The position numbers and the translations under genes are program-made. DNA of 64,000 nucleotides from Escherichia coli (GTDB lineage: Bacteria > Pseudomonadota > Gammaproteobacteria > Enterobacterales > Enterobacteriaceae). Location of the stretch: the NCBI RefSeq assembly GCF_009931435.1, contig NZ_CP043414.1; one strand, given 5' to 3'. Positions 1,374-62,421 of this stretch are shown here, piece by piece; position 1 is the stretch's first letter; every line of letters begins with the position of its first letter. The notes beneath the pieces are model-generated. The model worked only from the letters and a program-made list of their open reading frames with translations, did no database searches and was not told the origin of the DNA.

Positions 1374-1380
1374 ATCTCCC

Positions 1381-1411: not shown

Positions 1412-1544
1412 TCCCACAGCAAATCCTCCTGATTTAGCGATAAAAGCTCTCTGGATTGCGCCCCCTGGAAGTCGGGCGCATAATTAGTGTGCTTATCTTT
1501 TCTTCTTATGTTCACCGCGCCTGGCGCACCAACAGCGGATTGCT

Positions 1545-2771
1545 ATGTCACCCTGTGAAAATGACACCCCTATAAACTGGAAACGAAACCTGATCGTCGC
1601 CTGGCTAGGCTGTTTTCTTACCGGTGCCGCCTTCAGCCTGGTAATGCCCTTCTTACCCCTCTACGTTGAGCAGCTTGGCGTTACCGGCCACTCCGCCCTG
1701 AATATGTGGTCCGGTATTGTCTTCAGCATTACATTTTTATTTTCGGCCATCGCCTCACCGTTTTGGGGTGGACTCGCCGACCGTAAAGGCCGAAAACTCA
1801 TGCTATTACGCTCTGCCCTCGGCATGGGCATCGTGATGGTGTTGATGGGGCTGGCACAAAATATCTGGCAGTTTTTGATCCTGCGGGCGCTTCTTGGTTT
1901 ACTTGGCGGATTTGTCCCCAACGCTAATGCTCTTATCGCCACACAAGTACCGCGTAATAAAAGCGGCTGGGCGCTGGGTACGCTCTCCACAGGCGGCGTT
2001 AGCGGTGCGTTGCTCGGCCCAATGGCTGGCGGTTTGCTTGCCGATAGCTACGGCTTACGTCCGGTATTCTTTATTACCGCCAGTGTGCTGATACTTTGCT
2101 TTTTCGTCACCCTGTTTTGCATCCGAGAAAAATTCCAGCCAGTCAGCAAAAAAGAGATGCTGCATATGCGGGAAGTGGTGACATCACTTAAAAACCCGAA
2201 ACTGGTACTCAGCCTGTTTGTCACCACGTTAATCATCCAGGTGGCGACGGGTTCAATTGCCCCTATTCTGACGCTGTATGTCCGCGAACTGGCGGGTAAC
2301 GTCAGTAATGTCGCCTTTATCAGCGGCATGATCGCCTCGGTGCCTGGCGTGGCTGCTCTGCTGAGTGCACCACGACTCGGCAAACTTGGCGATCGAATCG
2401 GACCCGAAAAGATCCTGATTACAGCGTTGATCTTTTCTGTACTGCTGTTGATCCCAATGTCTTACGTTCAGACACCGTTACAACTTGGGATCTTACGCTT
2501 TTTGCTCGGTGCTGCCGATGGTGCACTACTCCCCGCCGTACAGACACTGTTGGTTTACAACTCGAGCAACCAAATCGCCGGGCGTATCTTCAGCTATAAC
2601 CAATCGTTTCGTGATATTGGCAACGTTACCGGGCCATTGATGGGAGCGGCGATTTCGGCGAACTACGGTTTCAGAGCGGTATTCCTCGTCACCGCTGGCG
2701 TAGTGTTATTCAACGCCGTCTATTCATGGAACAGTCTGCGCCGTCGTCGGATACCCCAGGTATCAAACTGA
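1545..2771 (+). CDS. mdtG: MFS multidrug efflux transporter MdtG (YceE)
   Basis: 408-aa ORF with ATG at 1545; multi-pass membrane protein with MFS motif [10 protein letters not shown]; recognised as MdtG. Confidence 0.93.
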
Positions 2772-2853
2772 TTTTTCGCCTTTCATACTTGCAATAGCGG
2801 AGAATCAGCTATCCTTTTCCCTGAAACCTCATCAACTCAAAGGGAGAATCGTG

Positions 2854-3228
2854 ATGACCATGTACGCAACGCTTGAAGAAGCCATTGACGCTGCACGCGA
2901 AGAATTTCTTGCAGACAACCCCGGCATCGACGCCGAAGACGCGAATGTGCAACAGTTCAATGCCCAAAAATACGTTTTGCAGGACGGCGACATCATGTGG
3001 CAAGTTGAGTTTTTTGCCGACGAAGGGGAAGAAGGTGAATGTTTACCCATGCTTAGCGGTGAAGCCGCGCAAAGTGTCTTTGACGGCGACTATGATGAGA
3101 TAGAGATCCGCCAGGAGTGGCAGGAAGAGAATACATTACATGAATGGGACGAGGGGGAATTTCAGCTTGAGCCACCGCTGGATACGGAAGAAGGACGGGC
3201 AGCGGCTGATGAGTGGGATGAACGCTAA
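2854..3228 (+). CDS. msyB: Acidic protein MsyB
   Basis: ORF 2851..3228 begins with GTG; ATG at 2854 gives MTMYATLEEAIDAAREEF..., 124 aa, highly acidic (D/E rich); AGGGAGAA RBS upstream. Confidence 0.9.
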   Translation: MTMYATLEEAIDAAREEFLADNPGIDAEDANVQQFNAQKYVLQDGDIMWQVEFFADEGEEGECLPMLSGEAAQSVFDGDYDEIEIRQEWQEENTLHEWDEGEFQLEPPLDTEEGRAAADEWDER

Positions 3229-3626: not shown

Positions 3627-7809
<4,183 letters not shown>

Positions 7810-9256: not shown

Positions 9257-10687
9257 TTACAATAACCATTCCACAGGCAATATCGACGCCAGTCTGACCA
9301 TAACCCGCTTCCAGAAACTGGTAGCGGGTTCTTTTTTGAGAACAATTTCTTTCTTTGCATGACGATCAACCCAGTTGATCCGCCCCCACCTGTCCAGACG
9401 GAGCTGCCAGGCCGCATCATACTGGCTCTGAATAAAGCGTTTATCAATTAACTGTGCCAGCGTTTCGCTCTCTATCACGAACCCCATTTCAGTATTGAGC
9501 AATGTCGAACGTGGATCGAAATTGAAAGAGCCAATAAACACCGTTTTACCATCGATGCTAAAGGTTTTAGCATGCAGGCTGGCACCGGAATTACCGGTTA
9601 TGCCGCGATCGTGTAACGTACTACTTTGTTCACGCGTCGGCTTGAGTTCATATAACTCCACGCCGTAGCGGAGCAATTTTTTGCGCCAGCGCGCGTATCC
9701 GGCATGGACGACAGCAACATCGTTAGCGGCAAGAGAATTGGTTAGGATCGCAATCTTTACCCCTTTTCTCACCATCCGTAAGAGTTGCGCCACACCTGCG
9801 CGTGTCGGTACAAAATAGGAAGAGATAATATCGATGCGTTCACTGGGTGAGCCCATGATATCGAACAGGCGCTGCGGTAACAGTGAATGCCGTTTTGCCT
9901 TGCCTTCCCCTTTCGCCGGATCATCACTTAATAAACGTGTTTTCGCCCAGATAAGCGGCAACGTTCCATCAACCAGATGATTTATAAACGGGCTGGATTC
10001 CATTTTGCGTAAATAACGATGCGTCATGGCATCGTCATGCCAGGAGGCGGGTAACTCGATGCGATCCGCCATTTCACCTTCCGGGACATCCAGCACCTGC
10101 TGTAAGGGTGAAACCGATTTACAATACCAGTAGCGGGCGAAATCATCGGCAACGTCCTCTACAACTGGTCCTATTGCCATGACATCTAAATCCGAAAAAA
10201 GTGGCTCTTCCCCTGCACCAAAATAGGCATCACCAATATTTCGTCCCCCCACCAGAGTCACCACACCATCGACGGTGAAACTTTTATTGTGCATACGGCG
10301 ATTGAGACGGGAAAAGTCGGTGATATAACCAAGCGGACGTAGCAGTCGAAACGAAAAAGGATTAAAAAGCCGGACTTCAATGCGGGGATGACTGTCAAGC
10401 AAGCGTAAAATGTCGTCAAGTCCGGGTGTATTGTTGTCGTCCAGCAACAAACGGACGCGAACGCCACGCTTTGCTGCGGCTAACAGGGCGGAAAACAGTA
10501 ACCGACCCGACATATCGTCCTGCCAGATGTAATACTGAACATCCAGCGTATGCTCTGCCATTTCGGCCAGACGATACCGGGCGGCAAACGCATCCAGACT
10601 TTTCTCCAGAGGGAAAAGGCCACACTGACCGGGATGTTGCGAACACAGTGGCAGCACCGCGCTCGCCAGCCGGGGCAAATCATTCAT
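9257..10687 (-). CDS. clsC: Cardiolipin synthase C (phospholipase D family) ClsC/YmdC
   Basis: ORF 9257..10747; start placed at ATG giving [17 protein letters not shown]... (putative lipoprotein signal); two PLD-type HxK motifs (HNKSF, HAKTF). Exact start uncertain. Confidence 0.85.
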
Positions 10688-11213
10688 CTCCTTGTTGGGT
10701 AAGGAGTCTTTCGTAGAGGTGGGCGTTTTCTTCATCATAACAGACAAAGTATACCTGTTCGGGTAAAGCGTGACGGGTAATAAATTCTGAAACGGTTTTT
10801 ACTGCGATTTCAGCCGCTGCCGCACGAGGGTAACCATAAACCCCAGTACTAATTGCAGGAAAAGCCACTGACGTATAGCTGTTTGCCGCCACCAGTCGTA
10901 GGCTATTGAGATAGGCATCCTGCAAAAGCTGGTCTTCGTTTTGTTCACCACCACGCCAGACTGGCCCGACGGTGTGCACTACGGCTTTAGCGGGAAGATC
11001 GCCTGCAAGCGTAATAACGGCATGCCCCGTAGGGCAATCGCCCTGCTGTTGCCTGACTTTTAAACAGGCATCCAGAAGGGCCGGACCCGCTGCGCGATGA
11101 ATGGCTCCATCGACGCCGCCGCCTCCCATTAATGACGGATTAGCCGCATTCACAATCACATCAACGGCCAGTTTGGTAATATCACCCTGCACAACATGAA
11201 TACGCGTTTTCAT
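10680..11213 (-). CDS. ymdB: Macrodomain protein YmdB (O-acetyl-ADP-ribose deacetylase)
   Basis: 177-aa [28 protein letters not shown]...; macro-domain signature; stop overlaps clsC start (ATGAATGA), implying an operon. Confidence 0.92.
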
Positions 11214-11307
11214 AACGCCTCCTTACACCTTCTTGTTTCTTAAGTGTACAGCAGGCTTTTTGGTTAAATCGCATTTTTCTGCTCAGCAAGGTGAGTTGTT
11301 CAGAAAC

Positions 11308-11687
<380 letters not shown>

Positions 11688-11688
11688 C

Positions 11689-12072
<384 letters not shown>

Positions 12073-12130
12073 ATTCTTCTCCCGAAAAAAAACAGGGCTT
12101 GCGCCCTGTTTCTTTAATACAGAGGATGTA

Positions 12131-12586
12131 TTAGTACTGATGAGCGGTCGCGTTGTTACCAAAGCCAACCTGAGTGACGTTAACGCTGGAGTTAGATGCA
12201 GTCTGGTCAACAGCAGCACCGTTACCGCCACCGAACTGTTTAACAGTCATAGTAGAATCTTTACCATTCCACTGATCAAGAGTGGCGCTGTTACCGAAGC
12301 CACGCTGAGTCAGATCGATTGAGCTGTCATCTGAGCCCTGACCAACATCTGCACCGTTACCACCGCCATGCTGGGTAATAGTCAAGTCAGAGTTACGGGC
12401 ATCAGTTTGCAGAGCAAGTGCAGAGTTACCGCCACCGTACTGGTAAATGTTCAGCTCTGAATTTGGGCCGCTATTATTACCGCCACCACCGTGGTTACCG
12501 CCGCCGCCGTACTGAGGAACAACACCTGCCAGAGCGCTACCAGAGAATACGATTGCTGCAATTGCTGCTACTTTTAAAAGTTTCAT
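12131..12586 (-). CDS. csgA: Major curlin subunit CsgA
   Basis: 151-aa ORF with signal peptide and five imperfect S-x5-Q-x-G-x-G-N-x-A-x3-Q amyloid repeats. Confidence 0.97.
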   Translation of the reverse strand: MKLLKVAAIAAIVFSGSALAGVVPQYGGGGNHGGGGNNSGPNSELNIYQYGGGNSALALQTDARNSDLTITQHGGGNGADVGQGSDDSSIDLTQRGFGNSATLDQWNGKDSTMTVKQFGGGNGAAVDQTASNSSVNVTQVGFGNNATAHQY

Positions 12587-12626
12587 GTAAAACCCCCATC
12601 GGATTGATTTAAAAGTCGAATGGAAA

Positions 12627-13082
12627 TTAACGTTGTGTCACGCGAATAGCCATTTGCGACTGTCTCTGCACTACAATTGCCGTTTTTTGAGTACCATACT
12701 GTGTAATATTTGCTTTATTACCAGAACCTTTCTGGATAATCATCGCAGTATTACCATAAGCACCTTGCGAAATACTGGCATCGTTGGCATTGCCCGCCTG
12801 ATCAATATATGCAAGGTTATAATCTCCTGTCTGGTCAATCTTTGCCCGGTTGCTACTACCTTCTTGCGCAACAACCGCCAAAAGTTTTGAGCCTCCCTGC
12901 CGTAACTGAGCACTATTATTAGTCCCAGCTTGACCAATTATGGCTGCCTGATTAAATGAAGACTTACTCAATTCATTTACCGCGAAGTTATATTCTGAAT
13001 TAGCTAAATCATAACCTGCTGCGGCTGCAATCCCAGGCGCACCCAGTATTGTTAACATCATAAATAACAATTTGTTTTTCAT
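12627..13082 (-). CDS. csgB: Minor curlin/nucleator subunit CsgB
   Basis: ORF 12627..13109; start at MKNKLLFMMLTILGAPGIAAA gives 151 aa; curlin repeat architecture. Confidence 0.95.
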   Translation of the reverse strand: MKNKLLFMMLTILGAPGIAAAAGYDLANSEYNFAVNELSKSSFNQAAIIGQAGTNNSAQLRQGGSKLLAVVAQEGSSNRAKIDQTGDYNLAYIDQAGNANDASISQGAYGNTAMIIQKGSGNKANITQYGTQKTAIVVQRQSQMAIRVTQR

Positions 13083-13837
13083 GTTGTCACCCTGGACCTG
13101 GTCGTACATTTAAGAAATTAAATCATTTCAACTTAGTTGTTAACGCAACCTGTATTTTGTTAACGCCGCGTTACGATGGAAAGTATGTCTGCGGAAATAT
13201 TTTTAATAACTCACCCGCGCGTTGTATTTTTCTTTTTTTGTTCATACCAAAGTATTAAAACCCACGTAAATACGCTGTTATCTACGCAAAAAAAATATTT
13301 TGTTTTCTTTTAAATTTCGGTTTTCCGCAATCAAAAATCACCAGACAGTCATTCTTCTTGCCCGTCGCTGATTGCTGCGATATGTCTTGCGCACAAGCCG
13401 TGACAAACCTCGTCTTTTTGCAGTAAAAAATTGTCCACGGAGGTGTGGAGAAAAAACAAGAACGTTTTACATGACGAAAGGACTACACCGAAATATTTTT
13501 TATATGCATTATTAGCAAGTTAGCACCATTTGTATGATTTTTTAAAATTGTGCAAGAAAAACCAAATGTACAACTTTTCTATCATTTCTAAACTTAATAA
13601 AACCTTAAGATTAACATTTTAATATAACAAGTTACATTTAGTTACATGTTTAACACTTGATTTAAGATTTGTAATGGCTAGATTGAAATCAGATGTAATC
13701 CATTAGTTTTATATTTTACCCATTTAGGGCTGATTTATTACTACACACAGCAGTGCAACATCTGTCAGTACTTCTGGTGCTTCTATTTTAGAGGCAGCTG
13801 TCAGGTGTGCGATCAATAAAAAAAGCGGGGTTTCATC
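13083..13837. promoter_or_regulatory. csgBAC / csgDEFG divergent intergenic control region (about 755 bp, AT-rich)
   Basis: Unusually long AT-rich non-coding region between divergent csgB and csgD starts; known from the literature to carry the csgD and csgB promoters and a long csgD 5' UTR. Individual sites not mapped here. Confidence 0.7.
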
Positions 13838-14488
<651 letters not shown>

Positions 14489-14492
14489 AGCC

Positions 14493-14882
14493 ATGAAACG
14501 TTATTTACGCTGGATTGTGGCGGCAGAATTCCTGTTCGCCGCAGGGAATCTTCACGCCGTTGAGGTAGAAGTCCCGGGCTTGTTAACTGACCATACTGTT
14601 TCATCAATTGGCCATGATTTTTACCGAGCCTTTAGTGATAAATGGGAAAGTGACTATACGGGTAACTTAACGATTAATGAAAGGCCCAGTGCACGATGGG
14701 GAAGTTGGATCACAATAACGGTCAATCAGGACGTTATTTTCCAGACTTTTTTATTCCCGTTGAAAAGAGACTTCGAAAAAACTGTCGTCTTTGCACTGAT
14801 TCAAACTGAAGAAGCACTAAATCGTCGCCAGATAAATCAGGCGTTATTGAGTACGGGCGATTTGGCGCATGATGAATTCTAA
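14493..14882 (+). CDS. csgE: Curli secretion specificity factor CsgE
   Basis: 129-aa ORF with signal peptide; position and sequence match CsgE. Confidence 0.93.
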
Positions 14883-14906
14883 ATAAAAAATTGTTCGGAG
14901 GCTGCA

Positions 14907-15323
14907 ATGCGTGTCAAACATGCAGTAGTTCTACTCATGCTTATTTCGCCTTTAAGTTGGGCTGGAACCATGACTTTCCAGTTCCGTAATCCAAACTTTG
15001 GTGGTAACCCAAATAATGGCGCTTTTTTATTAAATAGCGCCCAGGCACAGAACTCGTATAAAGATCCGAGCTATAACGATGACTTTGGTATTGAAACGCC
15101 ATCAGCGTTAGATAACTTTACCCAGGCCATCCAGTCACAAATTTTAGGTGGGCTACTGTCGAATATTAATACCGGTAAACCGGGCCGCATGGTGACCAAC
15201 GATTATATTGTCGATATCGCTAACCGCGATGGTCAATTGCAGTTGAATGTGACGGATCGCAAAACCGGACAAACCTCGACCATCCAGGTTTCGGGTTTAC
15301 AAAATAACTCAACCGATTTTTAA
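14907..15323 (+). CDS. csgF: Curli assembly component CsgF
   Basis: 138-aa ORF with signal peptide ([19 protein letters not shown]); recognised as CsgF. Confidence 0.93.
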
Positions 15324-15349
15324 GCCCCAGCTTCATAAGGAAAATAATC

Positions 15350-16183
15350 ATGCAGCGCTTATTTCTTTTGGTTGCCGTCATGTTACTGAGCGGATGCTTA
15401 ACCGCCCCGCCTAAAGAAGCCGCCAGACCGACATTAATGCCTCGTGCTCAGAGCTACAAAGATTTGACCCATCTGCCAGCGCCGACGGGTAAGATCTTTG
15501 TTTCGGTATACAACATTCAGGACGAAACCGGGCAATTTAAACCCTACCCGGCAAGTAACTTCTCCACTGCTGTTCCGCAAAGCGCCACGGCAATGCTGGT
15601 CACGGCATTGAAAGATTCTCGCTGGTTTATACCGCTGGAGCGCCAGGGCTTACAAAACCTGCTTAACGAGCGCAAGATTATTCGTGCAGCACAAGAAAAC
15701 GGCACGGTTGCCATTAATAACCGAATCCCGCTGCAATCTTTAACGGCGGCAAATATCATGGTTGAAGGTTCGATTATCGGTTATGAAAGCAACGTTAAAT
15801 CGGGCGGTGTTGGGGCAAGATATTTTGGGATCGGTGCCGACACGCAATACCAGCTCGATCAGATTGCCGTGAACCTGCGTGTCGTCAATGTGAGTACCGG
15901 TGAGATCCTCTCCTCGGTGAACACCAGTAAGACGATACTTTCCTATGAAGTTCAGGCGGGGGTCTTCCGCTTTATTGACTACCAGCGCTTGCTGGAAGGG
16001 GAAGTAGGTTACACCTCGAACGAACCCGTTATGCTGTGCCTGATGTCGGCTATCGAAACAGGCGTCATTTTCCTGATTAATGATGGTATCGACCGCGGTC
16101 TTTGGGATTTGCAGAACAAAGCAGAACGGCAGAATGACATTCTGGTGAAATACCGCCATATGTCGGTTCCACCGGAATCCTGA
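15350..16183 (+). CDS. csgG: Curli secretion channel lipoprotein CsgG
   Basis: 277-aa ORF with lipobox (LLSGC); recognised as CsgG. Confidence 0.95.
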   Translation: MQRLFLLVAVMLLSGCLTAPPKEAARPTLMPRAQSYKDLTHLPAPTGKIFVSVYNIQDETGQFKPYPASNFSTAVPQSATAMLVTALKDSRWFIPLERQGLQNLLNERKIIRAAQENGTVAINNRIPLQSLTAANIMVEGSIIGYESNVKSGGVGARYFGIGADTQYQLDQIAVNLRVVNVSTGEILSSVNTSKTILSYEVQAGVFRFIDYQRLLEGEVGYTSNEPVMLCLMSAIETGVIFLINDGIDRGLWDLQNKAERQNDILVKYRHMSVPPES

Positions 16184-16189
16184 TAGATA

Positions 16190-16219
16190 AAAATGCCGGA
16201 ATTATCATCCGGCATTTTA
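16190..16219 (+). terminator. Intrinsic terminator hairpin after csgG (atgccgga...tccggcat + TTTT)
   Basis: 8-bp stem with following T-run directly after the csgG stop; a second hairpin (gcgtgag...ctcacgc + T-run) sits at about 16244-16270. Confidence 0.5.
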
Positions 16220-16246
16220 CTGTTCAAGCGAAAGCGTGAGTGCCCC

Positions 16247-16738
16247 TCACGCTTTATTTTTGATTTGCTGCTCACGGTGAGCCGTCTTTGCACTACGCGC
16301 CGCCAGCCACAAGCCGCTGTTTTTCATTGCGTAACCAAATACCAGTCCAAGCGCCAGCGAAGGTAACACCAGTTTCCAGTCACCCTGCCCGGCAAACGTC
16401 GCGCATGCGCCTATAAACGTCCCCGGAACAAATGAAAGCAGCAGCTGTTTCGCCTGAATACACATCAGAAACGCGACAATACCGGTTATGACATAACCGA
16501 GAATTTCCAGATGTGGTGCCAGTGCACTACCGTAAATAATGACCATCGCCCACACCACGCCACTAAGCAGGGTTGCAGCGGAGATCGCCAGCCCTTTCAG
16601 CCCACCTTGCGGGCAGGCAAAGTAGGCCGTACAGCCCAGGAAGCCCGCCCAGCTTAGTAAGCCCAGGGAAACAGCCACCCATCCCCAGATACCGGAGAGA
16701 ATGCCTGTTGTGATTGCAATAGAGAGAAGTATGTTCAT
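16247..16738 (-). CDS. ycdZ: Inner membrane protein YcdZ (DUF1097)
   Basis: ORF 16247..16786; start at MNILLSIAITTGILSGIWG gives 163 aa, multi-pass membrane protein. Confidence 0.85.
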   Translation of the reverse strand: MNILLSIAITTGILSGIWGWVAVSLGLLSWAGFLGCTAYFACPQGGLKGLAISAATLLSGVVWAMVIIYGSALAPHLEILGYVITGIVAFLMCIQAKQLLLSFVPGTFIGACATFAGQGDWKLVLPSLALGLVFGYAMKNSGLWLAARSAKTAHREQQIKNKA

Positions 16739-16839
16739 GCCGCGCATGATAGCAGAAAACGCGGCCATGAATGAGATCGAGCACACATTTTATGCAACAA
16801 CAAATTATCTGTTGCAGTTATGAGTGATGGAGATCACAT

Positions 16840-17394
16840 TTACTCTTCAGAATCTTCTTCCAGCTCGTCCCACATTGCACTAATAGCATCGCGGGTTAGC
16901 GGTGCCATGGTGCGCCAGAAAGGCGTAGTTGCATGGGCCTCCACTTTGCCAAGGAACGCACCACACCAGGGTAACAGATACTCACTGAACAGTGTTTCCA
17001 GTGCTTCGCTCTCATCTTCCGTTGACTGATCTTCCAGCCAGGAAGCCGCGAGCAGCAATGTACCGATGTGATCGGCTGGCGTATCCGCTAATGGCATCCC
17101 TCGTTCGGAAAGAAAAGCGCGCACTTCCGCTTCCGTCGCGCCCTCAACCCATGCGCTACGATATGGCGGCACAGCACATTCATCGCCGATAAACAACGCA
17201 TTGTATTCGGCAGAGACTTGCGCCATATCACAGCTTTTCTGTAAACGTGTCAGTAACTCATCCTGCTCCAGTGGCCAGTTCGCAGCCAGTTTCCCCTCAC
17301 GAATCAGGGTAAACAGCGGCACCAGTAAAGGATCTTGCGGTTGGCGGTAATAGAGCGAACCCAGCACACGACAGAGGATAGAAAACTCGTTCAT
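16840..17394 (-). CDS. ycdY: TorD-family redox enzyme maturation chaperone YcdY
   Basis: 184-aa ORF; sequence recognised as YcdY; upstream partner of ycdX. Confidence 0.9.
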   Translation of the reverse strand: MNEFSILCRVLGSLYYRQPQDPLLVPLFTLIREGKLAANWPLEQDELLTRLQKSCDMAQVSAEYNALFIGDECAVPPYRSAWVEGATEAEVRAFLSERGMPLADTPADHIGTLLLAASWLEDQSTEDESEALETLFSEYLLPWCGAFLGKVEAHATTPFWRTMAPLTRDAISAMWDELEEDSEE

Positions 17395-17417
17395 TAATAT
17401 ATTTCCATTACTAGTAA

Positions 17418-18155
17418 TTAAAGGTCTGCAAATTCCGCAATCGGTGCCATACCACGAGATTCAAGGAAGTTCAGTAAGCGGCGCGGAGAAACATTCAAAA
17501 TGCGCTCTGGCGGAAAATCTACCGCGTCGAGGATTTTAAGACACTCTTCAAATTCACCCATGGTAAACGCGGTGTGAGAATCCGAGCCTAATGCCACCCA
17601 ACCTCCAGCGTCACGTACCGCTGCGGCTACCGCACGACAGTTGTCTTCACTGCCCTTACGTGAGTGTAAAAATGAGGAATTATTGATTTCCAGCGCCACC
17701 TGATGTTTCGCAGCTGCTTCAGCAACGGCTTTAACATCTATTTCATATTTCGGATTTCCGGGATGGCTTATTATATGCACATTGCCGCTGGCGATAGTGG
17801 CGATCATCGCTTGCGTATTGGTCGCTTTGTCATGCGGCGCAAACACCGGCTCATGAAAACCGGCAATAATCAGATCCAGCGAATCAAACATTTTGCCACT
17901 GCAGTCAATTTCACCGTCAACATTTTTAATGTTAGCTTCGATCCCGCGCAGGATCCCAACCCCATCAACCACTCGCGGCCAGATACGCATGTTAATGAAG
18001 TGCCAGTGATGCGGCGCATCTTCCATATCCGGGCCATGATCGGTGATCGCAAAAAGTTTAATGCCCTTTTGTTTGGCCTGGGCAATGTAATCACTCAATG
18101 TGCTATATGCATGCGTGCTAGCAACGGTATGCATATGAAGGTCGACGGGATACAT
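17418..18155 (-). CDS. ycdX: PHP-domain metal-dependent phosphoesterase YcdX
   Basis: 245-aa ORF starting [14 protein letters not shown] (PHP-domain His motif). Confidence 0.9.
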
Positions 18156-18209
18156 AACTCTCTCCTGTATTCAATTCCCGCCAAGGATAGCAGGAAACCT
18201 GATGCTTTA

Positions 18210-19187
<978 letters not shown>

Positions 19188-19381: not shown

Positions 19382-19469
19382 GGTGAGGTGTCCGAGTGGC
19401 TGAAGGAGCACGCCTGGAAAGTGTGTATACGGCAACGTATCGGGGGTTCGAATCCCCCCCTCACCGCCA
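19382..19469 (+). tRNA. serX: tRNA-Ser (anticodon GGA), serX-type
   Basis: 88-nt sequence GGTGAGGTGTCCGAGTGGCTGAAGG...CCTGGAAA...GGTTCGAATCCCCCCCTCACCGCCA with long variable arm and encoded CCA. Confidence 0.95.
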
Positions 19470-19935
19470 TCTTTAAAGAAGAGCTCGTACGAAAGTACGG
19501 GCTTTTTTTTCGTATATTGCACACACCGGGGGGATGAGAAGCCCCGACAGGGGTTCGACAACTGGCGACAGCCAGTTGGACAGACCGTGAACGCAGTGAG
19601 CGGGCTGCCCGCAGGGCGAGCGAAGCGAGTCAATCCCCCCCTCACCGCCATCTTTAAAGAAGAGCTCGTACGAAAGTACGGGCTTTTTTTTTGTATATTG
19701 CACACACCGGGGGGATGAGAAGCCCCGACAGGGGTTCGACAACTGGCGACAGCCAGTTGGACAGACCGTGAACGCAGTGAGCGGGCTGCCCGCAGGGCGA
19801 GCGAAGCGAGTCAATCCCCCCCTCACCGCCATCTTTAAAGAAGAGCTCGTACGAAGGTACGGGCTTTTTTTTCGTATATTGCACACACCGGGGGATGAAA
19901 AGCCCCGACCGGGGTTCGACAACTGGCGACAAACT
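19461..19935. repeat. About 2.6 tandem copies of a ~181-bp unit, each carrying the serX 3'-terminal ~20 nt plus the terminator hairpin
   Basis: The string tcaccgccatctttaaagaagagctcgtacgaaagtacgggc recurs at about 19461, 19642 and 19823; copies 1 and 2 are near-identical, copy 3 is truncated and diverged; each unit also has an 8-bp palindrome caactggc-gaca-gccagttg. Confidence 0.85.
19482..19510 (+). terminator. Rho-independent terminator of serX (gctcgtac-gaaa-gtacgggc + T8)
   Basis: Hairpin followed by 8 T residues immediately 3' of the tRNA; repeated in each downstream repeat unit. Confidence 0.75.
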
Positions 19936-21392
19936 CAATCATCATCCTTGCAGTTGATAAGAATTTCTGCCTCTTTTACAACTATCTTATTACGTCCGGT
20001 TTCTTTCGCTTCATATAGTGCATTATCAGCCATTCGATAGATTTCATTCGGATTTAACGCACTTCCCTGAGTCACCACAGCGCCAATGCTAATCGTCACT
20101 TTTTGCGGTATGGCGTATTCAGGATTATCGCCTGTCAAACGCTCTACATTTGCCCTTATCCTTTCGGCTAAAACTTTCGCGCTTTCAGTATCGGTCTCCG
20201 TCAGCAAGACGCCAAACTCTTCGCCGCCAACGCGTGCTAAAAGGTCATTTGGTCGTATGCTTTTCCCAATGATGCTCACCACTGTTTTTATCACCTGATC
20301 GCCAACCGGATGCCCCCACGTATCGTTAACTTTTTTAAAGTGATCGATATCCATAATCATGACACAATAAGACGTTTTTTGGGCTGATGCTGATTGAGCC
20401 TTCAGTTCATTGAAAAAATAATTCCTGTTAAATATATTAGTTAATGGATCGCGATGGGCAATGTTCTTTGTTACTCGTAGCGCACTGAAAATATGGCACA
20501 TAAATATTACCATAACGGTTAATTTACTGACTACTTCAATAGTGCGGCTAATATACCAAGTGGACACACTATACCTGCTCATAAATAACAGAGAGATATT
20601 ATACAGCACGGCACAGAAAGCAATCACTGATACTCCATTCCAGATATCACAGCGTAAACCATTAAAGTATAGATTAACCAAAAGCAAGATTAACCACATG
20701 AAAATTATTATGGTAACATATGAGGTTTTCCAGACTACCTGACCATTTTCATTTGTTAACTCGGCAATATGTAAACTGTAGTCATCATAATGACTACTTA
20801 GCATGTGAGCAACTGCCGCCCCCCCATAAATAAAAAATAGGCTTATACACAATGTCATTTTTTTGGAAAAAAAACAGCGTTTCTTATTGTTTTCACTAAC
20901 TTTATTCACCAGCGCTAGCAATATTAACATGCACAAACTCATCTGACGAAACAAATAATAAATTGCAATATCATTTTGTACAACGCTGCTTATCAAATGC
21001 CCCTCAATAAATTGCTGAATGATAATGACAGTTTTAACAAAGTAAATCAAACAACTCAGAAACGCTAAACTAAGTATACAGTTTGAAAATTGCACACGAT
21101 CATAAATGAAATACAATTGCATGAAAATAAATGCAACGGTATCGATAAAAAATAAAGCAATCATAACCATTAGATAGGTTGATCGTGGAACAACCTCCTC
21201 AACGGTTGGCTGATTAAACCAACTATTTACCAAAACGAATGCAAGCCCAAACAATAAGCTCACCAATACAGTACTACTAATTCCCAAATAGTCTTTTTCC
21301 ATAAAGCTACACCAATCTGTAGGTTGTAGATCCCTTTCTGTCACTAATAGATATAAGAACTGTACTGTTGTCAATATAAAAATCCACCACAA
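19935..21392 (-). CDS. dgcT: Membrane-anchored diguanylate cyclase DgcT (YcdT), GGDEF domain
   Basis: 485-aa ORF beginning at a TTG codon; first in-frame ATG (MEKDYLG...) would give 455 aa. N-terminal multi-TM region plus C-terminal GGDEF with intact GGEEF motif. AT-rich gene. Confidence 0.88.
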   Translation of the reverse strand: MWWIFILTTVQFLYLLVTERDLQPTDWCSFMEKDYLGISSTVLVSLLFGLAFVLVNSWFNQPTVEEVVPRSTYLMVMIALFFIDTVAFIFMQLYFIYDRVQFSNCILSLAFLSCLIYFVKTVIIIQQFIEGHLISSVVQNDIAIYYLFRQMSLCMLILLALVNKVSENNKKRCFFSKKMTLCISLFFIYGGAAVAHMLSSHYDDYSLHIAELTNENGQVVWKTSYVTIIIFMWLILLLVNLYFNGLRCDIWNGVSVIAFCAVLYNISLLFMSRYSVSTWYISRTIEVVSKLTVMVIFMCHIFSALRVTKNIAHRDPLTNIFNRNYFFNELKAQSASAQKTSYCVMIMDIDHFKKVNDTWGHPVGDQVIKTVVSIIGKSIRPNDLLARVGGEEFGVLLTETDTESAKVLAERIRANVERLTGDNPEYAIPQKVTISIGAVVTQGSALNPNEIYRMADNALYEAKETGRNKIVVKEAEILINCKDDD

Positions 21393-21657
21393 ACAATACC
21401 AATGATGATAGTTGCAGACCGCAATTATTATTACCTTAGTGCTTTATACATTCTTCGCGACAAGACAGGCTTGCAAATACATATAAATGGTTATAAGGAA
21501 ATCCTTATAAAACATTAATTCATAGATATATTAGGAATAACAATTGAATCCGTGAGTACAGTAACGCTGCATTTCATCAGGACTTTCGAAAAATCCGATA
21601 TCATGCATCGGAATTTACTGATTTAATTATTTTAATCCTAATTTATTTTGAAAAAGG

Positions 21658-21894
21658 CATTGGAATTTATGCCGTATTCCTGAAGTTCCTCATCATTGGA
21701 ATGGATTTTCGGGCGAGAAAAGGATTTTATATGGATACTCTACTCATCATTTCTTCTTCTCATCATCAACAATTCACGTCTCTCTTCCGCGTTTAATAAC
21801 GGATTATGATGTGCATAAAAAATATCTTTCGTTTCAGTTACCTGTAATTAGATACAGAGAGAGATTTTGGCAATACATGGAGTAATACAGGATG
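21658..21894 (+). promoter_or_regulatory. pgaA 5' leader with GGA motifs (candidate CsrA binding sites) including one over the start codon
   Basis: GGA-containing motifs at about 21801, 21877 and acaGGAtg overlapping the ATG at 21892; leader extent taken from published knowledge of pgaABCD regulation, not mapped here. Confidence 0.45.
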
Positions 21895-24315
21895 TATTCA
21901 AGTAGCAGAAAAAGGTGCCCGAAAACCAAATGGGCTTTGAAAATTCTTACTGCCGCATTTTTAGCAGCGAGTCCCGCGGCGAAGAGTGCTGTTAATAATG
22001 CCTATGATGCATTGATTATCGAAGCTCGCAAGGGAAATACTCAGCCAGCTTTGTTATGGTTTGCACAAAAATCAGCACTCAGTAATAACCAAATTGCTGA
22101 CTGGTTACAGATTGCCTTATGGGCCGGGCAAGATAAACAGGTTATTACCGTTTACAACCGCTACCGTCATCAGCAATTACCAGCGCGTGGTTATGCAGCT
22201 GTCGCCGTCGCTTATCGTAACCTGCAACAATGGCAAAACTCGCTTACACTGTGGCAAAAGGCACTCTCTCTGGAGTCGCAAAATAAGGATTATCAACGGG
22301 GACAAATTTTAACCCTGGCAGATGCGGGTCACTATGATTCTGCGCTGGTTAAACTTAAGCAGCTTAACTCTGGAGCACCGGACAAAGCTAATTTACTCGC
22401 AGAAGCCTATATCTATAAACTGGCGGGGCGGCATGAGGATGAATTACGGGCGATGACAGGGTCATTACCTGAAAATGCCTTAACGCAACAATATCCCACA
22501 GAATACGTGCAGGCATTACGGAATAATCAACTTGCTGCCGCGATTGACGATGCCAATTTAACGCCAGATATTCGCGCTGATATTCATGCCGAACTGGTCA
22601 GACTGTCGTTTATGCCTACGCGCAGTGAAAGTGAACGTTATGCCATTGCCGATCGCGCCCTCGCCCAATACGCTGCATTAGAAATTCTGTGGCATGATAA
22701 CCCTGACCGCACTGCCCAGTACCAGCGTATTCAGGTTGATCATCTTGGCGCGTTATTAACTCGCGATCGTTATAAAGACGTTATTTCTCACTATCAGCGT
22801 TTAAAAAAGACGGGGCAAATTATTCCGCCCTGGGCGCAATATTGGGTTGCGTCGGCTTATCTCAAAGAACATCAGCCAAAAAAAGCACAGTCAATAATGA
22901 CAGAGATCTTTTATCACAAGGAGACCATTGCCCCGGATTTATCCGATGAAGAACTTGCGGATCTCTTTTACAGCCACCTGGAGAGTGAAAATTATCCCGG
23001 CGCGCTAACTGTCACCCAACATACCATTAATACTTCGCCGCCTTTCCTTCGGTTAATGGGCACGCCTACGAGCATCCCGAATGATACCTGGTTACAGGGG
23101 CATTCGTTTCTCTCAACCGTAGCAAAATATAGTAATGATCTTCCTCAGGCTGAAATGACAGCCAGAGAGCTTGCTTATAACGCACCAGGAAATCAGGGAC
23201 TGCGCATTGATTACGCGAGTGTGTTACAAGCCCGCGGTTGGCCTCGTGCGGCAGAAAATGAATTAAAAAAAGCAGAAGTGATCGAGCCACGTAATATTAA
23301 TCTGGAGGTTGAACAAGCCTGGACAGCATTAACGTTACAAGAATGGCAGCAGGCAGCGGTCTTAACGCACGATGTTGTCGAACGTGAACCGCAAGATCCC
23401 GGCGTTGTACGTTTAAAACGTGCGGTTGATGTACATAATCTTGCAGAGCTTCGTATCGCTGGTTCAACAGGAATTGATGCCGAAGGTCCGGATAGTGGCA
23501 AACATGATGTCGACTTAACCACCATCGTTTATTCACCACCGCTGAATGATAACTGGCGCGGTTTTGCTGGATTCGGTTATGCCGATGGACAATTTAGCGA
23601 AGGAAAAGGGATTATTCGCGACTGGCTTGCGGGTGTTGAGTGGCGGTCACGTAATATCTGGCTTGAGGCGGAGTACACCGAACGCTTTTTCAATCATGAG
23701 CATAAACCCGGCGCGCGCCTGTCTGGCTGGTATGATTTTAATGATAACTGGCGTATTGGTTCGCAACTGGAACGCCTCTCTCACCGCGTTCCATTACGGG
23801 CAATGAAAAATGGTGTTACAGGCAACAGTGCACAGGCTTATGTTCGCTGGTATCAAAATGAGCGGCGTAAGTACGGTGTCTCTTGGGCTTTCACTGATTT
23901 TTCTGACAGTAATCAGCGTCATGAAGTCTCACTTGAGGGTCAGGAACGCATCTGGTCTTCACCATATTTGATTGTCGATTTCCTCCCCAATCTGTATTAC
24001 GAACAAAATACAGAACACGACACCCCATACTACAACCCTATAAAAATGTTCGATATTGTTCCGGCATTTGAGGCAAGTCATTTGTTATGGCGAAGCTATG
24101 AAAATAGCTGGGAGCAAATCTTCAGCGCAGGTGTTGGTGCCTCCTGGCAAAAACATTATGGCACGGATGTCGTCACCCAACTCGGCTACGGGCAACGCAT
24201 TAGCTGGAATGACGTGATTGATGCTGGCGCAACGCTACGCTGGGAAAAACGACCTTATGACGGTGACAGAGAACACAACTTATACGTTGAATTCGATATG
24301 ACATTCAGATTTTAA
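21892..24315 (+). CDS. pgaA: PGA (poly-beta-1,6-N-acetylglucosamine) outer-membrane export porin PgaA
   Basis: 807-aa ORF with signal peptide, TPR-like N-terminal half and beta-barrel C-terminus ending in F; recognised as PgaA. Confidence 0.95.
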   Translation: MYSSSRKRCPKTKWALKILTAAFLAASPAAKSAVNNAYDALIIEARKGNTQPALLWFAQKSALSNNQIADWLQIALWAGQDKQVITVYNRYRHQQLPARGYAAVAVAYRNLQQWQNSLTLWQKALSLESQNKDYQRGQILTLADAGHYDSALVKLKQLNSGAPDKANLLAEAYIYKLAGRHEDELRAMTGSLPENALTQQYPTEYVQALRNNQLAAAIDDANLTPDIRADIHAELVRLSFMPTRSESERYAIADRALAQYAALEILWHDNPDRTAQYQRIQVDHLGALLTRDRYKDVISHYQRLKKTGQIIPPWAQYWVASAYLKEHQPKKAQSIMTEIFYHKETIAPDLSDEELADLFYSHLESENYPGALTVTQHTINTSPPFLRLMGTPTSIPNDTWLQGHSFLSTVAKYSNDLPQAEMTARELAYNAPGNQGLRIDYASVLQARGWPRAAENELKKAEVIEPRNINLEVEQAWTALTLQEWQQAAVLTHDVVEREPQDPGVVRLKRAVDVHNLAELRIAGSTGIDAEGPDSGKHDVDLTTIVYSPPLNDNWRGFAGFGYADGQFSEGKGIIRDWLAGVEWRSRNIWLEAEYTERFFNHEHKPGARLSGWYDFNDNWRIGSQLERLSHRVPLRAMKNGVTGNSAQAYVRWYQNERRKYGVSWAFTDFSDSNQRHEVSLEGQERIWSSPYLIVDFLPNLYYEQNTEHDTPYYNPIKMFDIVPAFEASHLLWRSYENSWEQIFSAGVGASWQKHYGTDVVTQLGYGQRISWNDVIDAGATLRWEKRPYDGDREHNLYVEFDMTFRF

Positions 24316-28124: not shown

Positions 28125-29189
28125 TTAACTGTATGCATGTAGCGTACGTTGGCAAAGTGCCGAACGTACGCAATCCTCTTTACCGAATCGGACGATCCCG
28201 ACCATTTCATCTTCTTCGAAACGTTCCAGCGCGTCACTTAATCCGGAGCGCACGCCGCGAGGCAAATCGCATTGCGTGATATCACCGTTGACGATAACCG
28301 TCACGTTCTCCCCGAGGCGGGTTAAAAACATTTTCATTTGCGCGGCAGTCACATTCTGCGCCTCGTCAAGAATGACGACTGCATTTTCAAAGGTACGTCC
28401 ACGCATATAGGCGAACGGCGCGATTTCCACCTTCCCTATTTCCGGTCGCAGGCAGTACTGCATAAAGGAAGCCCCTAAGCGCCGGACCAGCACGTCGTAG
28501 ACCGGACGAAAATAGGGAGCAAACTTTTCTGCGATATCTCCAGGTAAGAAGCCAAGATCTTCATCGGCTTGCAGAACTGGACGGGTGACGATAATCCTGT
28601 CGACATCCTTATGTATCAGGGCCTCTGCCGCTTTTGCTGCGCTGATCCAGGTTTTTCCGCACCCGGCTTCGCCGGTGGCGAATATCAGCTGCTTACTCTC
28701 AATAGCCTTCAGATAGTGCAATTGCGCTTCATTTCGCGCGAGGATGGGCGAGGTATCGCGACTGTCGCGGGCCATACCAATGGCTTCTACGCCGCTCATC
28801 TGCACAAGCGAGGTGACCGATTCTTCTTCACGCTGCTTATGGCTGCGCGAATCCCGTCTCAGCACACGTTTTGCCTCGCGACGAGCTTTGATCACTGCTT
28901 TTTGTCTTCCCATGGAGAGCACCTTGAGTTGTTTGTATTCATCACACGCGCCGTTGGCAGCGCGATTATGCGCACGAACATCAGAGGGTTGGCTTCCTTG
29001 TAAGCCATAGTTTGCTTTTGGATAAAATGCCGAAAAACGGCTACGCGCACCGTTTACGGCGTCGGTAACACATGAAAAGAAAGGTTGAGGTTGAAAATGC
29101 AAAGTGACGAGATGACTACCGGAGGAGAAATCTCCGCGAGTGGTGGAGCGTTGCTTAACAAAACATTGTCCAGTACAGGACGTTACCAT
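28125..29189 (-). CDS. phoH: Phosphate-starvation-inducible ATPase PhoH (PsiH)
   Basis: 354-aa ORF with Walker A (GEAGCGKT); recognised as PhoH. Confidence 0.95.
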   Translation of the reverse strand: MVTSCTGQCFVKQRSTTRGDFSSGSHLVTLHFQPQPFFSCVTDAVNGARSRFSAFYPKANYGLQGSQPSDVRAHNRAANGACDEYKQLKVLSMGRQKAVIKARREAKRVLRRDSRSHKQREEESVTSLVQMSGVEAIGMARDSRDTSPILARNEAQLHYLKAIESKQLIFATGEAGCGKTWISAAKAAEALIHKDVDRIIVTRPVLQADEDLGFLPGDIAEKFAPYFRPVYDVLVRRLGASFMQYCLRPEIGKVEIAPFAYMRGRTFENAVVILDEAQNVTAAQMKMFLTRLGENVTVIVNGDITQCDLPRGVRSGLSDALERFEEDEMVGIVRFGKEDCVRSALCQRTLHAYS

Positions 29190-29387: not shown

Positions 29388-29552
29388 TTCGCATCAGGCA
29401 TCAACGCACGAACGCCGGATGCGGCGTGACCGCCTTATCCTGCCTACCAAACCCGCACCGATTGTAGGCATGATAAGACGCGCAAGCGTCGCATCAGGCA
29501 TCAGCGCACGAGCGCACGAACGCCTGGTACGGCGTAAACGCCTTATACGCCT
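29388..29552. repeat. REP/BIME cluster between phoH upstream region and efeB 3' end
   Basis: Several REP-like palindromic units (gccggatgcggcgtgaccgccttatcc, tgtaggcatgataagacgcg..., gcatcaggca). Confidence 0.6.
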
Positions 29553-29559
29553 AAAAACA

Positions 29560-30831
29560 TTAAACCCGCAATAATGCGCTTCCGAGATAATCGCTCGCGT
29601 CCTTCACCCCCGGCAGCGCAAAAAAATAACCGCCGCCGATGGGTTTAACGTATTCCTCCAGCGCTTCACCATTGAGCCTTTTTTGTACTGTCAGGAAGCC
29701 CTTTTCCAGATCGTGTTGGTAGCAGACAAACAGCAACCCCATATCCAGTTGCCCGGAATTGGTGACGCCCAACGAATAACTGTAGCCACGACGCAGCATC
29801 AGGCTGGACTCGCTCTCCGCCGTGCGGGGATTCGCCAGCCGGATATGGCTGTCCAGCGCGATCACCTTCCCTTCCGGATCACTGGCATAATCGGGAACAT
29901 CATGCTCATGCTGCATTCCCAGCGGCGCACCGGTTTGCTTATCGCGACCAAAAATTGTCTGCTGTTCTTTCAGCGGCGTTCTGTCCCAAAATTCCACTCG
30001 AAACTGAATCAAACGCACCGCCTGGTAGCTGCCACCGATTGTCCACGCAGGCTCCTGCTGATCTGCCGTTACCCACACCACTTTTTGCATCAACTTATCA
30101 TTCTGGCTATCGGGATTGGCAGTGCCGTCTTTGAAACCCAGCAAATTAATCGGCGTCTCTTTGCCTTTACTACGCGCTGCGTGATCGGAAATAAACCCTT
30201 CCCGCTTCCAGCGCACACTGAGCAAATCCGGCGTATGTTTGATGATATCGCGCAGCGCATGGATCACCGTGTCCTGGGTGTTGGCGCAAATTTGTAGCAA
30301 CACATCACCATGACATAACGCCGCATCCAGCGAGTCGTTGGGGAAACGCGTCATCTTCTGCAACTTTTTCGGCATCTGTGGCGCAAGACCAAACCGTTCA
30401 TCAAACAACGAGTGACCAACTGACAACGTGATGGTGAGATTGTCGGGCGCAATGTAGCCGCCAAGAATGCCGGAATCGAGTGGTGGCAGGCGCGGATTTG
30501 GCGTTTCTGGTGCTGCTCCGCCCTGAGTCAGAAAAGCAAAACGCTGAGTCAACAAGCGAAACAATCGCTCAAGATCAGCTTTATCGCTGGCAAGCACATC
30601 AAACGCCACCAGCATCATTGCCGCCTGCTGCGGCGTCAGAATACCCGCCTGATGTTCGCCATAAAACGGCTGCGCTTCACTGCGCGCATCCGGTGAAAGC
30701 GTCCCCGGCGCACTTTGCGTTTTTTGAGCATGCGCTACCGGACAACTTCCTGCCAGTGCCAGCGCGCCAATCCCTTTCAGTAAACGTCGGCGTGACGGTT
30801 CATTCACGCCGTTTTCATCTTCATACTGCAT
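29560..30831 (-). CDS. efeB: Dye-decolorizing (DyP) peroxidase / deferrochelatase EfeB, Tat-secreted
   Basis: 423-aa ORF with twin-arginine signal ([17 protein letters not shown]); recognised as EfeB/YcdB. Confidence 0.95.
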
Positions 30832-30836
30832 AACGC

Positions 30837-31964
30837 TTAATCCAGTCCCAGCACACCACGAAGTTGCGCCAGATCTTCCGCCAGCGCAGTAATCGGCCCT
30901 TTCAGCGCATTACGGTCGGCATCGGTCAGCTTGTCGTAAGTTTCATAACCGTCTTTGGTTCGGTATTTCGCCAGAATGGTATCTACCTTTTTGAAGTTGG
31001 CATCGACTTTTGCCAGCAGTTCCGGGTTGGCTTTTTGCAGTTGCGGACGCAGCAGATCGACAATTTTCTGCGAGCCTTCAACGTTAGCCTGGAAGTCCCA
31101 CAGATCGGTGTGGCTGTAGCGATCTTCTTCACCGCTGATTTTGCTGGCTGCCACTTCCTCAATCAGTCCGGCTGCGCCGCCGACCACTTTTGAAGGTGGG
31201 AAAGCCAGTTCACTGATCCGTTTTTGTAAATCGACCACATCGGTATAAAGCTGGTCAGCATACTGATCCATTCCTTTGGTGGTGTTGTCGCCAAACAATG
31301 CTTTTTCCAGACGGTGGAAACCGGTGAATTTCGGATCGCCGGCTTTTTGCTCGTAATCATCTTCACGGGCGTCAATGCTACCATCCAGATCAGAGAACAG
31401 CTCAGCAATCGGTTCAATGCGCTCATAGTGCTGGCGCGTCGGCGCATACAGTGCTTTCGCTTTTTCGATATCGCCTGCTTTAATAGCGTCGGTAAATGCT
31501 TTGGTGTCGGTCACCAGCTGCGTGGTTTCCGCCATGACATACGCTTTATATGCAGTAATTGCACCACCAAGACTTAACAGCGCATCACTTTGCGTCGCAT
31601 CCGCCGTTGCTTCACCTTTAACGATCAACTTCCCTTTCGGGTTAGTCAGCAGACCGCAGGTCATATCGTATTCGCCAGGCTGTAAATTCGCCGTCATTTT
31701 CTGGCTAAAACCAGGGGCGATATTTTCCCGCTCTTCCACCACCATCACGCCTTTGAGGATCTCCCACTCCAGCGCCTTCTGGCTGTGGTTCTGAATAATG
31801 AACTGTGTTTTCCCGGCGTTAACCGTAATGGTCATCGGTTCGCACTGTTTATCCGTCACGGTCACTTTGACCTGCGGAACATCAGCAGCGTTAGCCATAA
31901 AAGCAGAGGAGAACAGCGCAGCCACGCTTAATTGCAGTGCACTATGGCGGAAGTTAATGGTCAT
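30837..31964 (-). CDS. efeO: Periplasmic iron uptake protein EfeO (cupredoxin + M75 peptidase-like)
   Basis: 375-aa ORF with signal peptide; recognised as EfeO/YcdO. Confidence 0.95.
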
Positions 31965-32021: not shown

Positions 32022-32852
32022 TTACGCGGAGCGAGACGCTGTCGCCCCTGCGCGCGGCGGCAGAGTAAATGCCACCAGCGCCGGGATGAGATAAATAAAC
32101 CAGACGGCGACTTCGCTGACGCTCGGCGCTTCCTGATAACCAAAGATACCTTCCATCAGCGTACCGAACAGCGAGTGAGTTGAGAGCACCGCGCTCATAT
32201 CGAAGGCGATTTCCTGAAAGTGGTTCCACAGCCCGGCTTCATGAAACGCGCGAATAGCACCAGCAGCCAGCCCTGCGGCGACGAAGAGAATAAACAGGCT
32301 GGTCCATTTAAAAAACGCGCCAAGATTGAGGCGAATACCGCCCCAGTAGAGCAGGAAGCCGAGCACCACGGCTGTAGCAAGACCGAGCATTGCACCCAGC
32401 GGAGGCCAGATCCCGACATCTTGTTGAAACGCCGCCAGCAGGAAAAAGACCGACTCCAGTCCTTCCCTTGCAACGGCAAAAAAGACCATCATCACCAGCG
32501 CCCAGCCATGATGATTCCCACGCTGCAATGCGCTATCGACTGCCTGTTCCAGTTGCACTTTGACGTTGCGCGACACTTTACGCATCCAGAAAACCATCCA
32601 GGTGAGGATCACCACGGCAATCACCGCCACGATACCTTCGAACAATTCCTGCTCTTTTTGCGGAAATTCGCCGGTGGTTTCATTAATGAAGATACCCAGC
32701 CCCAGGCACAACGCAGCGGCTAGCAACACGCCAATCCACATGACACCAATCCATCGACCTCGCTGGGTACGCTTAAGATAGCTGGCAATCAGGCTGACAA
32801 TCAGCGCGGCTTCAAGTCCTTCGCGCAACATAATGAGAAACGGAACAAACAT
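32022..32852 (-). CDS. efeU: Ferrous iron permease EfeU (FTR1 family), apparently intact
   Basis: ORF 32022..32861; start at MFVPFLIMLREGLEA gives 276 aa with both REGLE motifs (REGLEA, REGLES) and no frameshift. Confidence 0.93.
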   Translation of the reverse strand: MFVPFLIMLREGLEAALIVSLIASYLKRTQRGRWIGVMWIGVLLAAALCLGLGIFINETTGEFPQKEQELFEGIVAVIAVVILTWMVFWMRKVSRNVKVQLEQAVDSALQRGNHHGWALVMMVFFAVAREGLESVFFLLAAFQQDVGIWPPLGAMLGLATAVVLGFLLYWGGIRLNLGAFFKWTSLFILFVAAGLAAGAIRAFHEAGLWNHFQEIAFDMSAVLSTHSLFGTLMEGIFGYQEAPSVSEVAVWFIYLIPALVAFTLPPRAGATASRSA

Positions 32853-32908
32853 GCCACCCACCCTTAAACGTTTTTCTGAGTCAATCTATGCAAAGAAAAG
32901 TAAATCGC

Positions 32909-32970
32909 AGTGATAGCGATTATCATTACGGTGAAGAAAAACACAAGCGGAATGTAGTGATAATGATGAG
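32909..32970 (-). promoter_or_regulatory. Fur box-like sequences in the efeUOB promoter region
   Basis: Minus-strand TAATGATAATCGCTATCA (32911-32928) resembles Fur consensus GATAATGATAATCATTATC; second GTGATAATGATGAG at 32957-32970. Confidence 0.55.
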
Positions 32971-32998
32971 GAAATGTAAATTTTTTTTGAGAGAAAAT

Positions 32999-33027
32999 GC
33001 AGAGGGCAATCACTGATTGCCCTCTGC
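32999..33027 (-). terminator. Strong hairpin 3' of putP (13-bp stem gcagagggcaatc / gattgccctctgc)
   Basis: Near-perfect 13-bp inverted repeat about 45 nt downstream of the putP stop; T-run is weak. Confidence 0.5.
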
Positions 33028-33071
33028 CTGCTTCTGATTATGACGTGGGATTTTCGGTAAAACGCCTTCCC

Positions 33072-62035: not shown

Positions 62036-62208
62036 GGTCAGTGCGTATTTGCAGCGCGACGTTATCAAAGGTGATCATCGTCGATTTACAAAAAATACAC
62101 TTTGCCCCTAAAGGATTTCGCTCCGTCACATCGAATGCCGATGTGCGGTACTGTGAACCATGACAACATGGACAGCGGAAATGGAGATGTTGAGTAATAA
62201 CGGCAACC

Positions 62209-62421
62209 TTAGAGCGTAACAACGTTCGCTGCCGCGGGACCACGTTGCCCCTGCTCAATAGAAAATTCAACTTTCTGATTTTCGTTCAGCGTGCGGAATT
62301 CATTGCTCTGGATGGCGGTGAAATGGACGAAAACGTCTTTGCTGCCATCATCAGGAGTGATAAAGCCAAAACCTTTATCTGCGTTAAACCATTTTACTAA
62401 ACCAGTCATTTTATTAGACAT
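62209..62421 (-). CDS. cspG: Cold-shock protein CspG (CspA family)
   Basis: 70-aa [24 protein letters not shown] with RNP1/RNP2 motifs. Confidence 0.95.

Follow-up and report, generated by a model that had tools for sequence, protein, structure and literature searches.

Introduction

The EfeUOB system of Escherichia coli, whose composition (EfeU, EfeO and EfeB) is outlined in PMC9174327 and PMC4746246, has been characterised as a ferrous-iron transporter (Cao et al. 2007; Grosse et al. 2006; both as cited in PMC4746246, PMC7549933 and PMC9174327), and EfeU is described as a seven-TM protein of 276 aa (PMC9174327). The title of Cao et al. 2007, as cited in PMC7549933, PMC9174327 and PMC4746246, reports the system to be functional in O157:H7, and the passage of PMC7549933 that cites the same work gives both the frameshift in K-12 efeU and its rescue by an in-frame operon. 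The K-12 frameshift and a working intact allele are already published (Grosse et al. 2006; Cao et al. 2007). A role of EfeB as a haem deferrochelatase has also been proposed and is still debated (PMC3577903).

Here we describe efeUOB in a stretch of 64,000 nucleotides of E. coli DNA (contig NZ_CP043414.1 of assembly GCF_009931435.1; hereafter the window), for which an original prediction, made from the letters alone, had claimed an intact efeU. With a probability that we put at roughly 90%, the efeUOB operon of the window is the wild-type one of an E. coli outside K-12. A working, Fur-regulated EfeUOB system in the source strain is the best inference, with expression, regulation and Fe2+ transport all predicted.

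Results

efeU encodes a complete FTR1-family permease

The efeU CDS lies on the minus strand, a detail absent from the original prediction, and runs from an ATG at 32852-32850 to a TAA at 32024-32022. The predicted span of 32022-32852 proved exact, and its 831 nt encode 276 aa and a stop, with no internal stop or frameshift, as had been proposed. In the ORF listing the same frame is three codons longer, reaching a GTG at 32861 (279 aa); the start in all RefSeq orthologues inspected is the ATG (831 nt), and AAGGGTGG is found 8 nt upstream of the ATG at 32852.

The product is a putative inner-membrane iron permease of the FTR1/OFeT family. Residues 1-275 of 276 align to positions 1-283 of 284 of the Pfam FTR1 profile (PF03239; E 3.9e-89, 299.1 bits, cut-off 25.3), and the protein scores 331.5 bits against the NCBIfam equivalog NF041756 (cut-off 255) and 350.8 bits against TIGR00145 (cut-off 303.8), family matches that are far beyond chance. 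No relative with a solved structure was recovered when EfeU was searched against the PDB sequences. Both of the REGLE iron-binding motifs that had been predicted are present. The first (REXXE) motif occupies residues 10-14 (32811-32825, minus strand; plus-strand sequence TTCAAGTCCTTCGCG) in the first hydrophobic segment, inside a Kyte-Doolittle hydropathy peak that covers residues 1-23. The second occupies residues 129-133 (32454-32468, minus strand), with the canonical E at 130, in a hydrophobic stretch at about 117-140 that is kept below the Kyte-Doolittle threshold by its charges. This crude scan yields six distinct peaks of at least 1.6 which, together with the REGLE-bearing segment at about 117-140, are consistent with seven segments.

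The K-12 frameshift is absent from the window

The K-12 frameshift, which the original prediction had cited, is real: efeU (b4490) is annotated as an 830-bp pseudogene in NC_000913.3 (MG1655), and the gene is flagged 'frameshifted' in another K-12-type record. Alignment of the window to MG1655 efeU gives one gap, in K-12 only, and the reading frame of the window is sound. The gap corresponds to one G missing at ORF position 106/107 in codon 36, which the window retains: the GG of codon 36 (GGT) stands at 32746-32747 on the minus strand, where K-12 has a single G (context ATGGATTGGTGTCAT in the window, ATGGATTGTGTGAT in K-12). The K-12 frame meets a stop after residue 36, with the remaining protein in frame +3. 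A test of the window for the cryptic K-12 allele was likewise negative, the junction reading GATGGATTGTGTGATG in K-12 and GATGGATTGGTGTCATG in the window, from which the junction 40-mer is absent.

When compared with the O157 allele, the window EfeU is identical at 275 of 276 residues to WP_000497942.1, with A263T as the only change. At the DNA level efeU differs from the O157-type and K-12 alleles at 36-39 positions, of which nearly all leave the protein unchanged. The WP_000497942.1 gene of strain ERL04-3476 is part of a 3.4-kb segment shared at 100% identity with the O157:H7 strain Z887. Codon 263 of the window is ACT (Thr; 32064-32066, minus strand) and lies in the last hydrophobic segment or C-terminal tail; both the O157:H7-type and the restored K-12 proteins have Ala here, and among the alleles compared T263 occurs only in the window and in a near-identical relative, GCA_031233815.1. 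Residue 263 appears to tolerate change, since the B2 strain ABU 83972 has Val at this position.

The efeO and efeB genes are intact

Both partner genes follow efeU on the minus strand, separated by gaps of 57 nt (efeU-efeO) and 5 nt (efeO-efeB). The intact efeO (30837-31964, minus strand) encodes 375 aa of a predicted periplasmic protein with a Sec-type signal peptide and cupredoxin and imelysin (M75) domains, matching Pfam Cupredoxin_1 and Peptidase_M75 as well as NCBIfam PRK10378 over residues 1-375 of 375 (768.8 bits). Likewise intact, efeB (29560-30831, minus strand) encodes 423 aa of a putative Tat-exported DyP-type haem peroxidase/deferrochelatase, with matches to Pfam Dyp_perox_N and Dyp_perox_C and to TIGR01412 (616.7 bits, cut-off 428) and a twin-arginine motif, SRRRLLK, at residues 13-19. 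EfeO and EfeB are both full-length relative to their NCBIfam models. Upstream of the operon are putP and putA and downstream of it is phoH, an arrangement common to all E. coli records inspected.

Against K-12 the window differs by 35 synonymous codons and one non-synonymous codon in efeU (with the K-12 frame restored), by 40 and six in efeO and by 55 and six in efeB, ratios that indicate purifying selection on all three genes. We found no sequence evidence against the reading of an intact operon.

The spacer between efeB and phoH contains an element of about 127 bp (29389-29515), of which GCA_029095505.1 has a tandem second copy that is about 95% identical; this element is probably an intergenic repeat of the REP/BIME type.

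The region upstream of efeU

The window shares the approximately 135 bp that precede the efeU ATG, without a single difference, with K-12 MG1655, with MFDS1022581 and with ERL04-3476, a strain of the O157 type. Within this region a Fur-box-like 19-mer, CGTAATGATAATCGCTATC (32912-32930, minus strand), lies 60-78 nt upstream of the ATG, matches GATAATGATAATCATTATC at 15 of 19 positions and does not vary between the window and these three strains. A search with the consensus GATAATGATAATCATTATC at three or fewer mismatches returned no site in the window, and as the 19-mer has four mismatches and is missed at that threshold, we regard it as a candidate only. A sigma-70-like candidate promoter, TTTACA-18-TACATT (32951-32980, minus strand), matches at 9 of 12 positions, with a conserved -35 element and a spacer and -10 element that vary among strains; the scan of the region gave this one site against 2.7 expected by chance, and it carries no weight on its own. 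For CpxR, the pattern GTAAA-N5-GTAAA with one mismatch gave six matches against 4.6 expected, placing the half-site pair at 32890-32904 at chance level. Because the promoter, Fur and CpxR scans did not rise above chance, the regulation of efeUOB proposed below is taken from the literature and not from these sites.

Further upstream the spacer between putP and efeU is a variable spot. It measures 219 bp in the window (32853-33071) and in MFDS1022581; the K-12 spacer (3815-4356 of the K-12 record L002) is 542 bp long and unrelated in sequence, the divergence beginning upstream of about -135, and the O157:H7-type spacer (328-3000 of the record L005) holds an inserted hypothetical gene of 1,344 bp (WP_001247490.1). 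A 3.4-kb query spanning the latter gene and efeU is covered to at least 80% by 644 genomes. A hairpin with a 13-bp GC-rich stem followed by a T run (32999-33027, minus strand), shared by the window and MFDS1022581 and absent from the K-12 and O157-type spacers, is likely the putP terminator, which would isolate the efe promoter from putP read-through.

Distribution of intact efeU and placement of the source strain

At a coverage of at least 80%, efeU was found in 5,417 of 5,426 complete E. coli genomes. To detect the K-12 deletion we used a 40-mer with the junction at its centre, which forces each 28-base megablast seed to span the junction; 367 of the 5,426 genomes matched, all at 100%, which leaves about 93% of complete E. 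coli genomes without the deletion. Of these matches 60 were sampled, and the great majority of them are K-12 substrains, cloning hosts, laboratory-evolved lines or conjugation recipients, and the lesion is restricted to K-12-type genomes in nearly all of those sampled. In an evenly spaced sample of 40 rows of the efeU matches, a span of 830 for 831 was seen in two K-12-type rows only, and one more row, H40, had a span 15 bases shorter. In E. coli the intact gene is both ancestral and common, and not a marker; as the deletion is present in only 367 of 5,426 genomes, an intact gene signals merely 'not K-12'. The suggested use of efeU for strain placement thus holds as far as the exclusion of K-12 and is of little value beyond it, given the roughly 93% of genomes that lack the deletion.

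The window as a whole places the strain more firmly. It is collinear, at 95.3-97.7% identity, with K-12 1,049,105-1,117,034 in the reverse orientation, apart from lacking IS1D (K-12 1,049,778-1,050,545) and the IS3D-ymdE-ycdU segment (K-12 1,094,200-1,097,102); the IS sites in the window are at 19931-19978 and 63328-63336. Judged from these comparisons, the 95-98% identity and the missing IS1D and IS3D exclude K-12 far more decisively than efeU does. The best complete genomes reach only 98.2-99.2% identity to the window, and the exact window EfeB protein occurs in public draft assemblies, of which the nearest are GCA_031233815.1, GCA_029095505.1 and GCA_025259195.1. The source would accordingly be placed in a distant, uncommon E. 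coli lineage, as is evident without efeU. The idea that efeU, at about 95.5% identity to most E. coli, is a locally imported allele was rejected, the whole 64 kb being collinear with K-12 at 95-98%.

Several other features of the window were recorded. The 2-kb blocks most divergent from K-12 are 48001-50000 (85.5%) and 20001-22000 (91.7%), which by collinearity fall roughly in the yccE region and the dgcT (ycdT) region, respectively, and look like local hypervariable genes in a window that is otherwise 94-99% identical. Rfam searches gave a strong match to Ysr251 (Yersinia sRNA 251, antisense type) at 28130-28323 on the plus strand, with 192.8 bits for a gathering score of 100; its position puts it opposite the 3' part of phoH, near pgaD. 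Matches at the gathering score were a cspA-type thermoregulator 5' UTR at 62155-62577 on the minus strand, in the cspG/cspH region, the ES056 sRNA at 13691-13782 on the plus strand and a tRNA at 19382-19466 on the plus strand, at the position of serX in K-12; the ES036 (CssrF) sRNA at 45468-45510 on the plus strand was marginally above threshold.

A near-identical relative with an altered REGLE motif

Over the 7,272 bases of putP-efeUOB-phoH-pgaDC, the assembly GCA_031233815.1 (L007, DAPHKK010000014.1) agrees with the window at 7,271. The sole difference is a G to A change at nt 388 of efeU (980-1810 in L007; window position 32465), which produces E130K and turns the second REGLE into RKGLE. 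The change may have knocked out EfeU naturally and very recently, or it may be an error of sequencing or assembly, and it has no bearing on the window allele. We consider it unlikely that efeU has been lost repeatedly and independently in E. coli lineages, and not in K-12 alone; if this were so, the window would show the gene as it stood before a natural inactivation of very recent date, and selection on EfeUOB would be relaxed or fluctuating in some niches.

Discussion

We propose that the source strain retains a working EfeUOB system, as the K-12 lesion is absent, the EfeU is one residue from that of O157:H7-type strains, and efeO, efeB and the proximal promoter are intact. EfeO, as a Sec-exported periplasmic protein with cupredoxin and M75 domains, and EfeB, as a Tat-exported haem DyP peroxidase, would handle periplasmic Fe2+ by oxidation and hand-over, and EfeU, as a seven-helix permease of the oxidase-dependent Fe transporter (Ftr1p-like) family, would then move the iron into the cell, with the REGLE motifs of helices 1 and 4 forming the iron path. 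From the literature the operon would be expected to be repressed by Fur-Fe2+, induced at low pH and repressed by CpxAR at higher pH, and uptake of ferrous iron would be favoured at low pH. K-12 lost this route when a single G was deleted from codon 36 of efeU; the window keeps the ancestral frame.

An intact efeU ORF could nevertheless belong to a system that is inactive in the source strain, whether through A263T, through one of the five or six substitutions in EfeO and EfeB or through a regulatory difference in the shortened putP-efeU spacer. The rarity of T263, which of the alleles compared only those of the window and L007 have, and the spacer of 219 bp against 542 bp in K-12, different upstream of about -135, would fit such a defect, and E130K in the second REGLE of L007 indicates that the lineage is not immune to damaging changes. 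However, residue 263, which is remote from both REGLE motifs, varies among intact alleles (Ala, Val or Thr), the 135 promoter-proximal bp are identical to those of strains with a functional O157-type operon, and MFDS1022581 has the same short spacer beside an annotated intact operon. As the ratios of 35:1, 40:6 and 55:6 also indicate continued purifying selection, we regard an inactive system as very improbable.

It is similarly hard to credit that the operon is functional with haem iron, and not free Fe2+, as its substrate, EfeB acting as a periplasmic deferrochelatase and EfeU importing the released iron. PMC3577903 does report that E. coli EfeB supports the extraction of iron from haem with the tetrapyrrole left intact, and the RefSeq name of EfeB is 'deferrochelatase/peroxidase subunit'; this extraction requires no EfeU, since it was seen in K-12, where efeU is broken. 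The same paper, however, treats the deferrochelatase activity of the YfeX paralogue as controversial and the preferred iron source of EfeUOB as undecided, and Cao et al. 2007 and Grosse et al. 2006, as cited, describe a ferrous-iron transporter. The sequence of the window is compatible with either role, and the two are not mutually exclusive.

The source strain is not a K-12 derivative and probably has an acid-favoured EfeUOB route for ferrous iron, which is missing from K-12. Models of iron uptake that are based on K-12 should include EfeUOB when they are moved to this strain. The significance is low, as intact efeU is common to roughly 93% of complete E. coli genomes and will not surprise specialists.

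Comparison with known systems

The cryptic efeU of K-12 MG1655 (b4490, formerly ycdN) shares its locus, synteny and promoter-proximal region with the window and, once its frame is restored, is 95.7% identical in nucleotides and differs in protein at residue 263 only; it departs from the window in the G missing from codon 36 and in the longer putP-efeU spacer (542 bp vs 219 bp). EfeU of O157:H7 (YcdN, WP_000497942.1) has the same 276 aa, both REGLE motifs, the efeU-efeO-efeB order beside putP and phoH and the same 135 bp upstream of the start codon. In contrast, its gene has 39 nucleotide differences from that of the window (95.3% identity), which fall in 38 synonymous codons and one non-synonymous codon, and in O157-type strains putP and efeU are separated by the additional 1,344-bp hypothetical gene, which is not found in the window.

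For Nissle 1917, the strain whose EfeU Grosse and colleagues studied in 2006, the comparison stands on a presumably close relative, the B2 strain ABU 83972. The EfeU of ABU 83972 (WP_000497929.1) is also an intact 276-aa protein in the same operon and synteny, with 50 nucleotide and three amino-acid differences (M8I, T263V and A276V) relative to the window. The one Nissle-named genome sampled, EcN_Sk (NZ_CP172017.1; 5.06 Mb), was rejected as the reference and replaced by ABU 83972, as its locus is 99.4-99.9% identical to MG1655 and has the K-12 frameshift. The putA-putP-efeUOB region of EcN_Sk (9536-18940) is of the K-12 type, with an efeU pseudogene identical to that of K-12 and PutA and EfeO accessions that are those of K-12, unlike B2 strains, a pattern that points to engineering or recombination of the segment or to mislabelling of the strain.

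Finally, yeast Ftr1p/OFeT and the bacterial FTR1 relatives (Bordetella FtrC, Campylobacter cFtr1, FetM and B. subtilis EfeU) share with the window protein the full-length Pfam FTR1 domain, paired REXXE motifs and, probably, seven membrane segments. It is in the partners that these systems differ, Ftr1p working with the multicopper oxidase Fet3p and EfeU with the cupredoxin-M75 protein EfeO and the DyP peroxidase EfeB.
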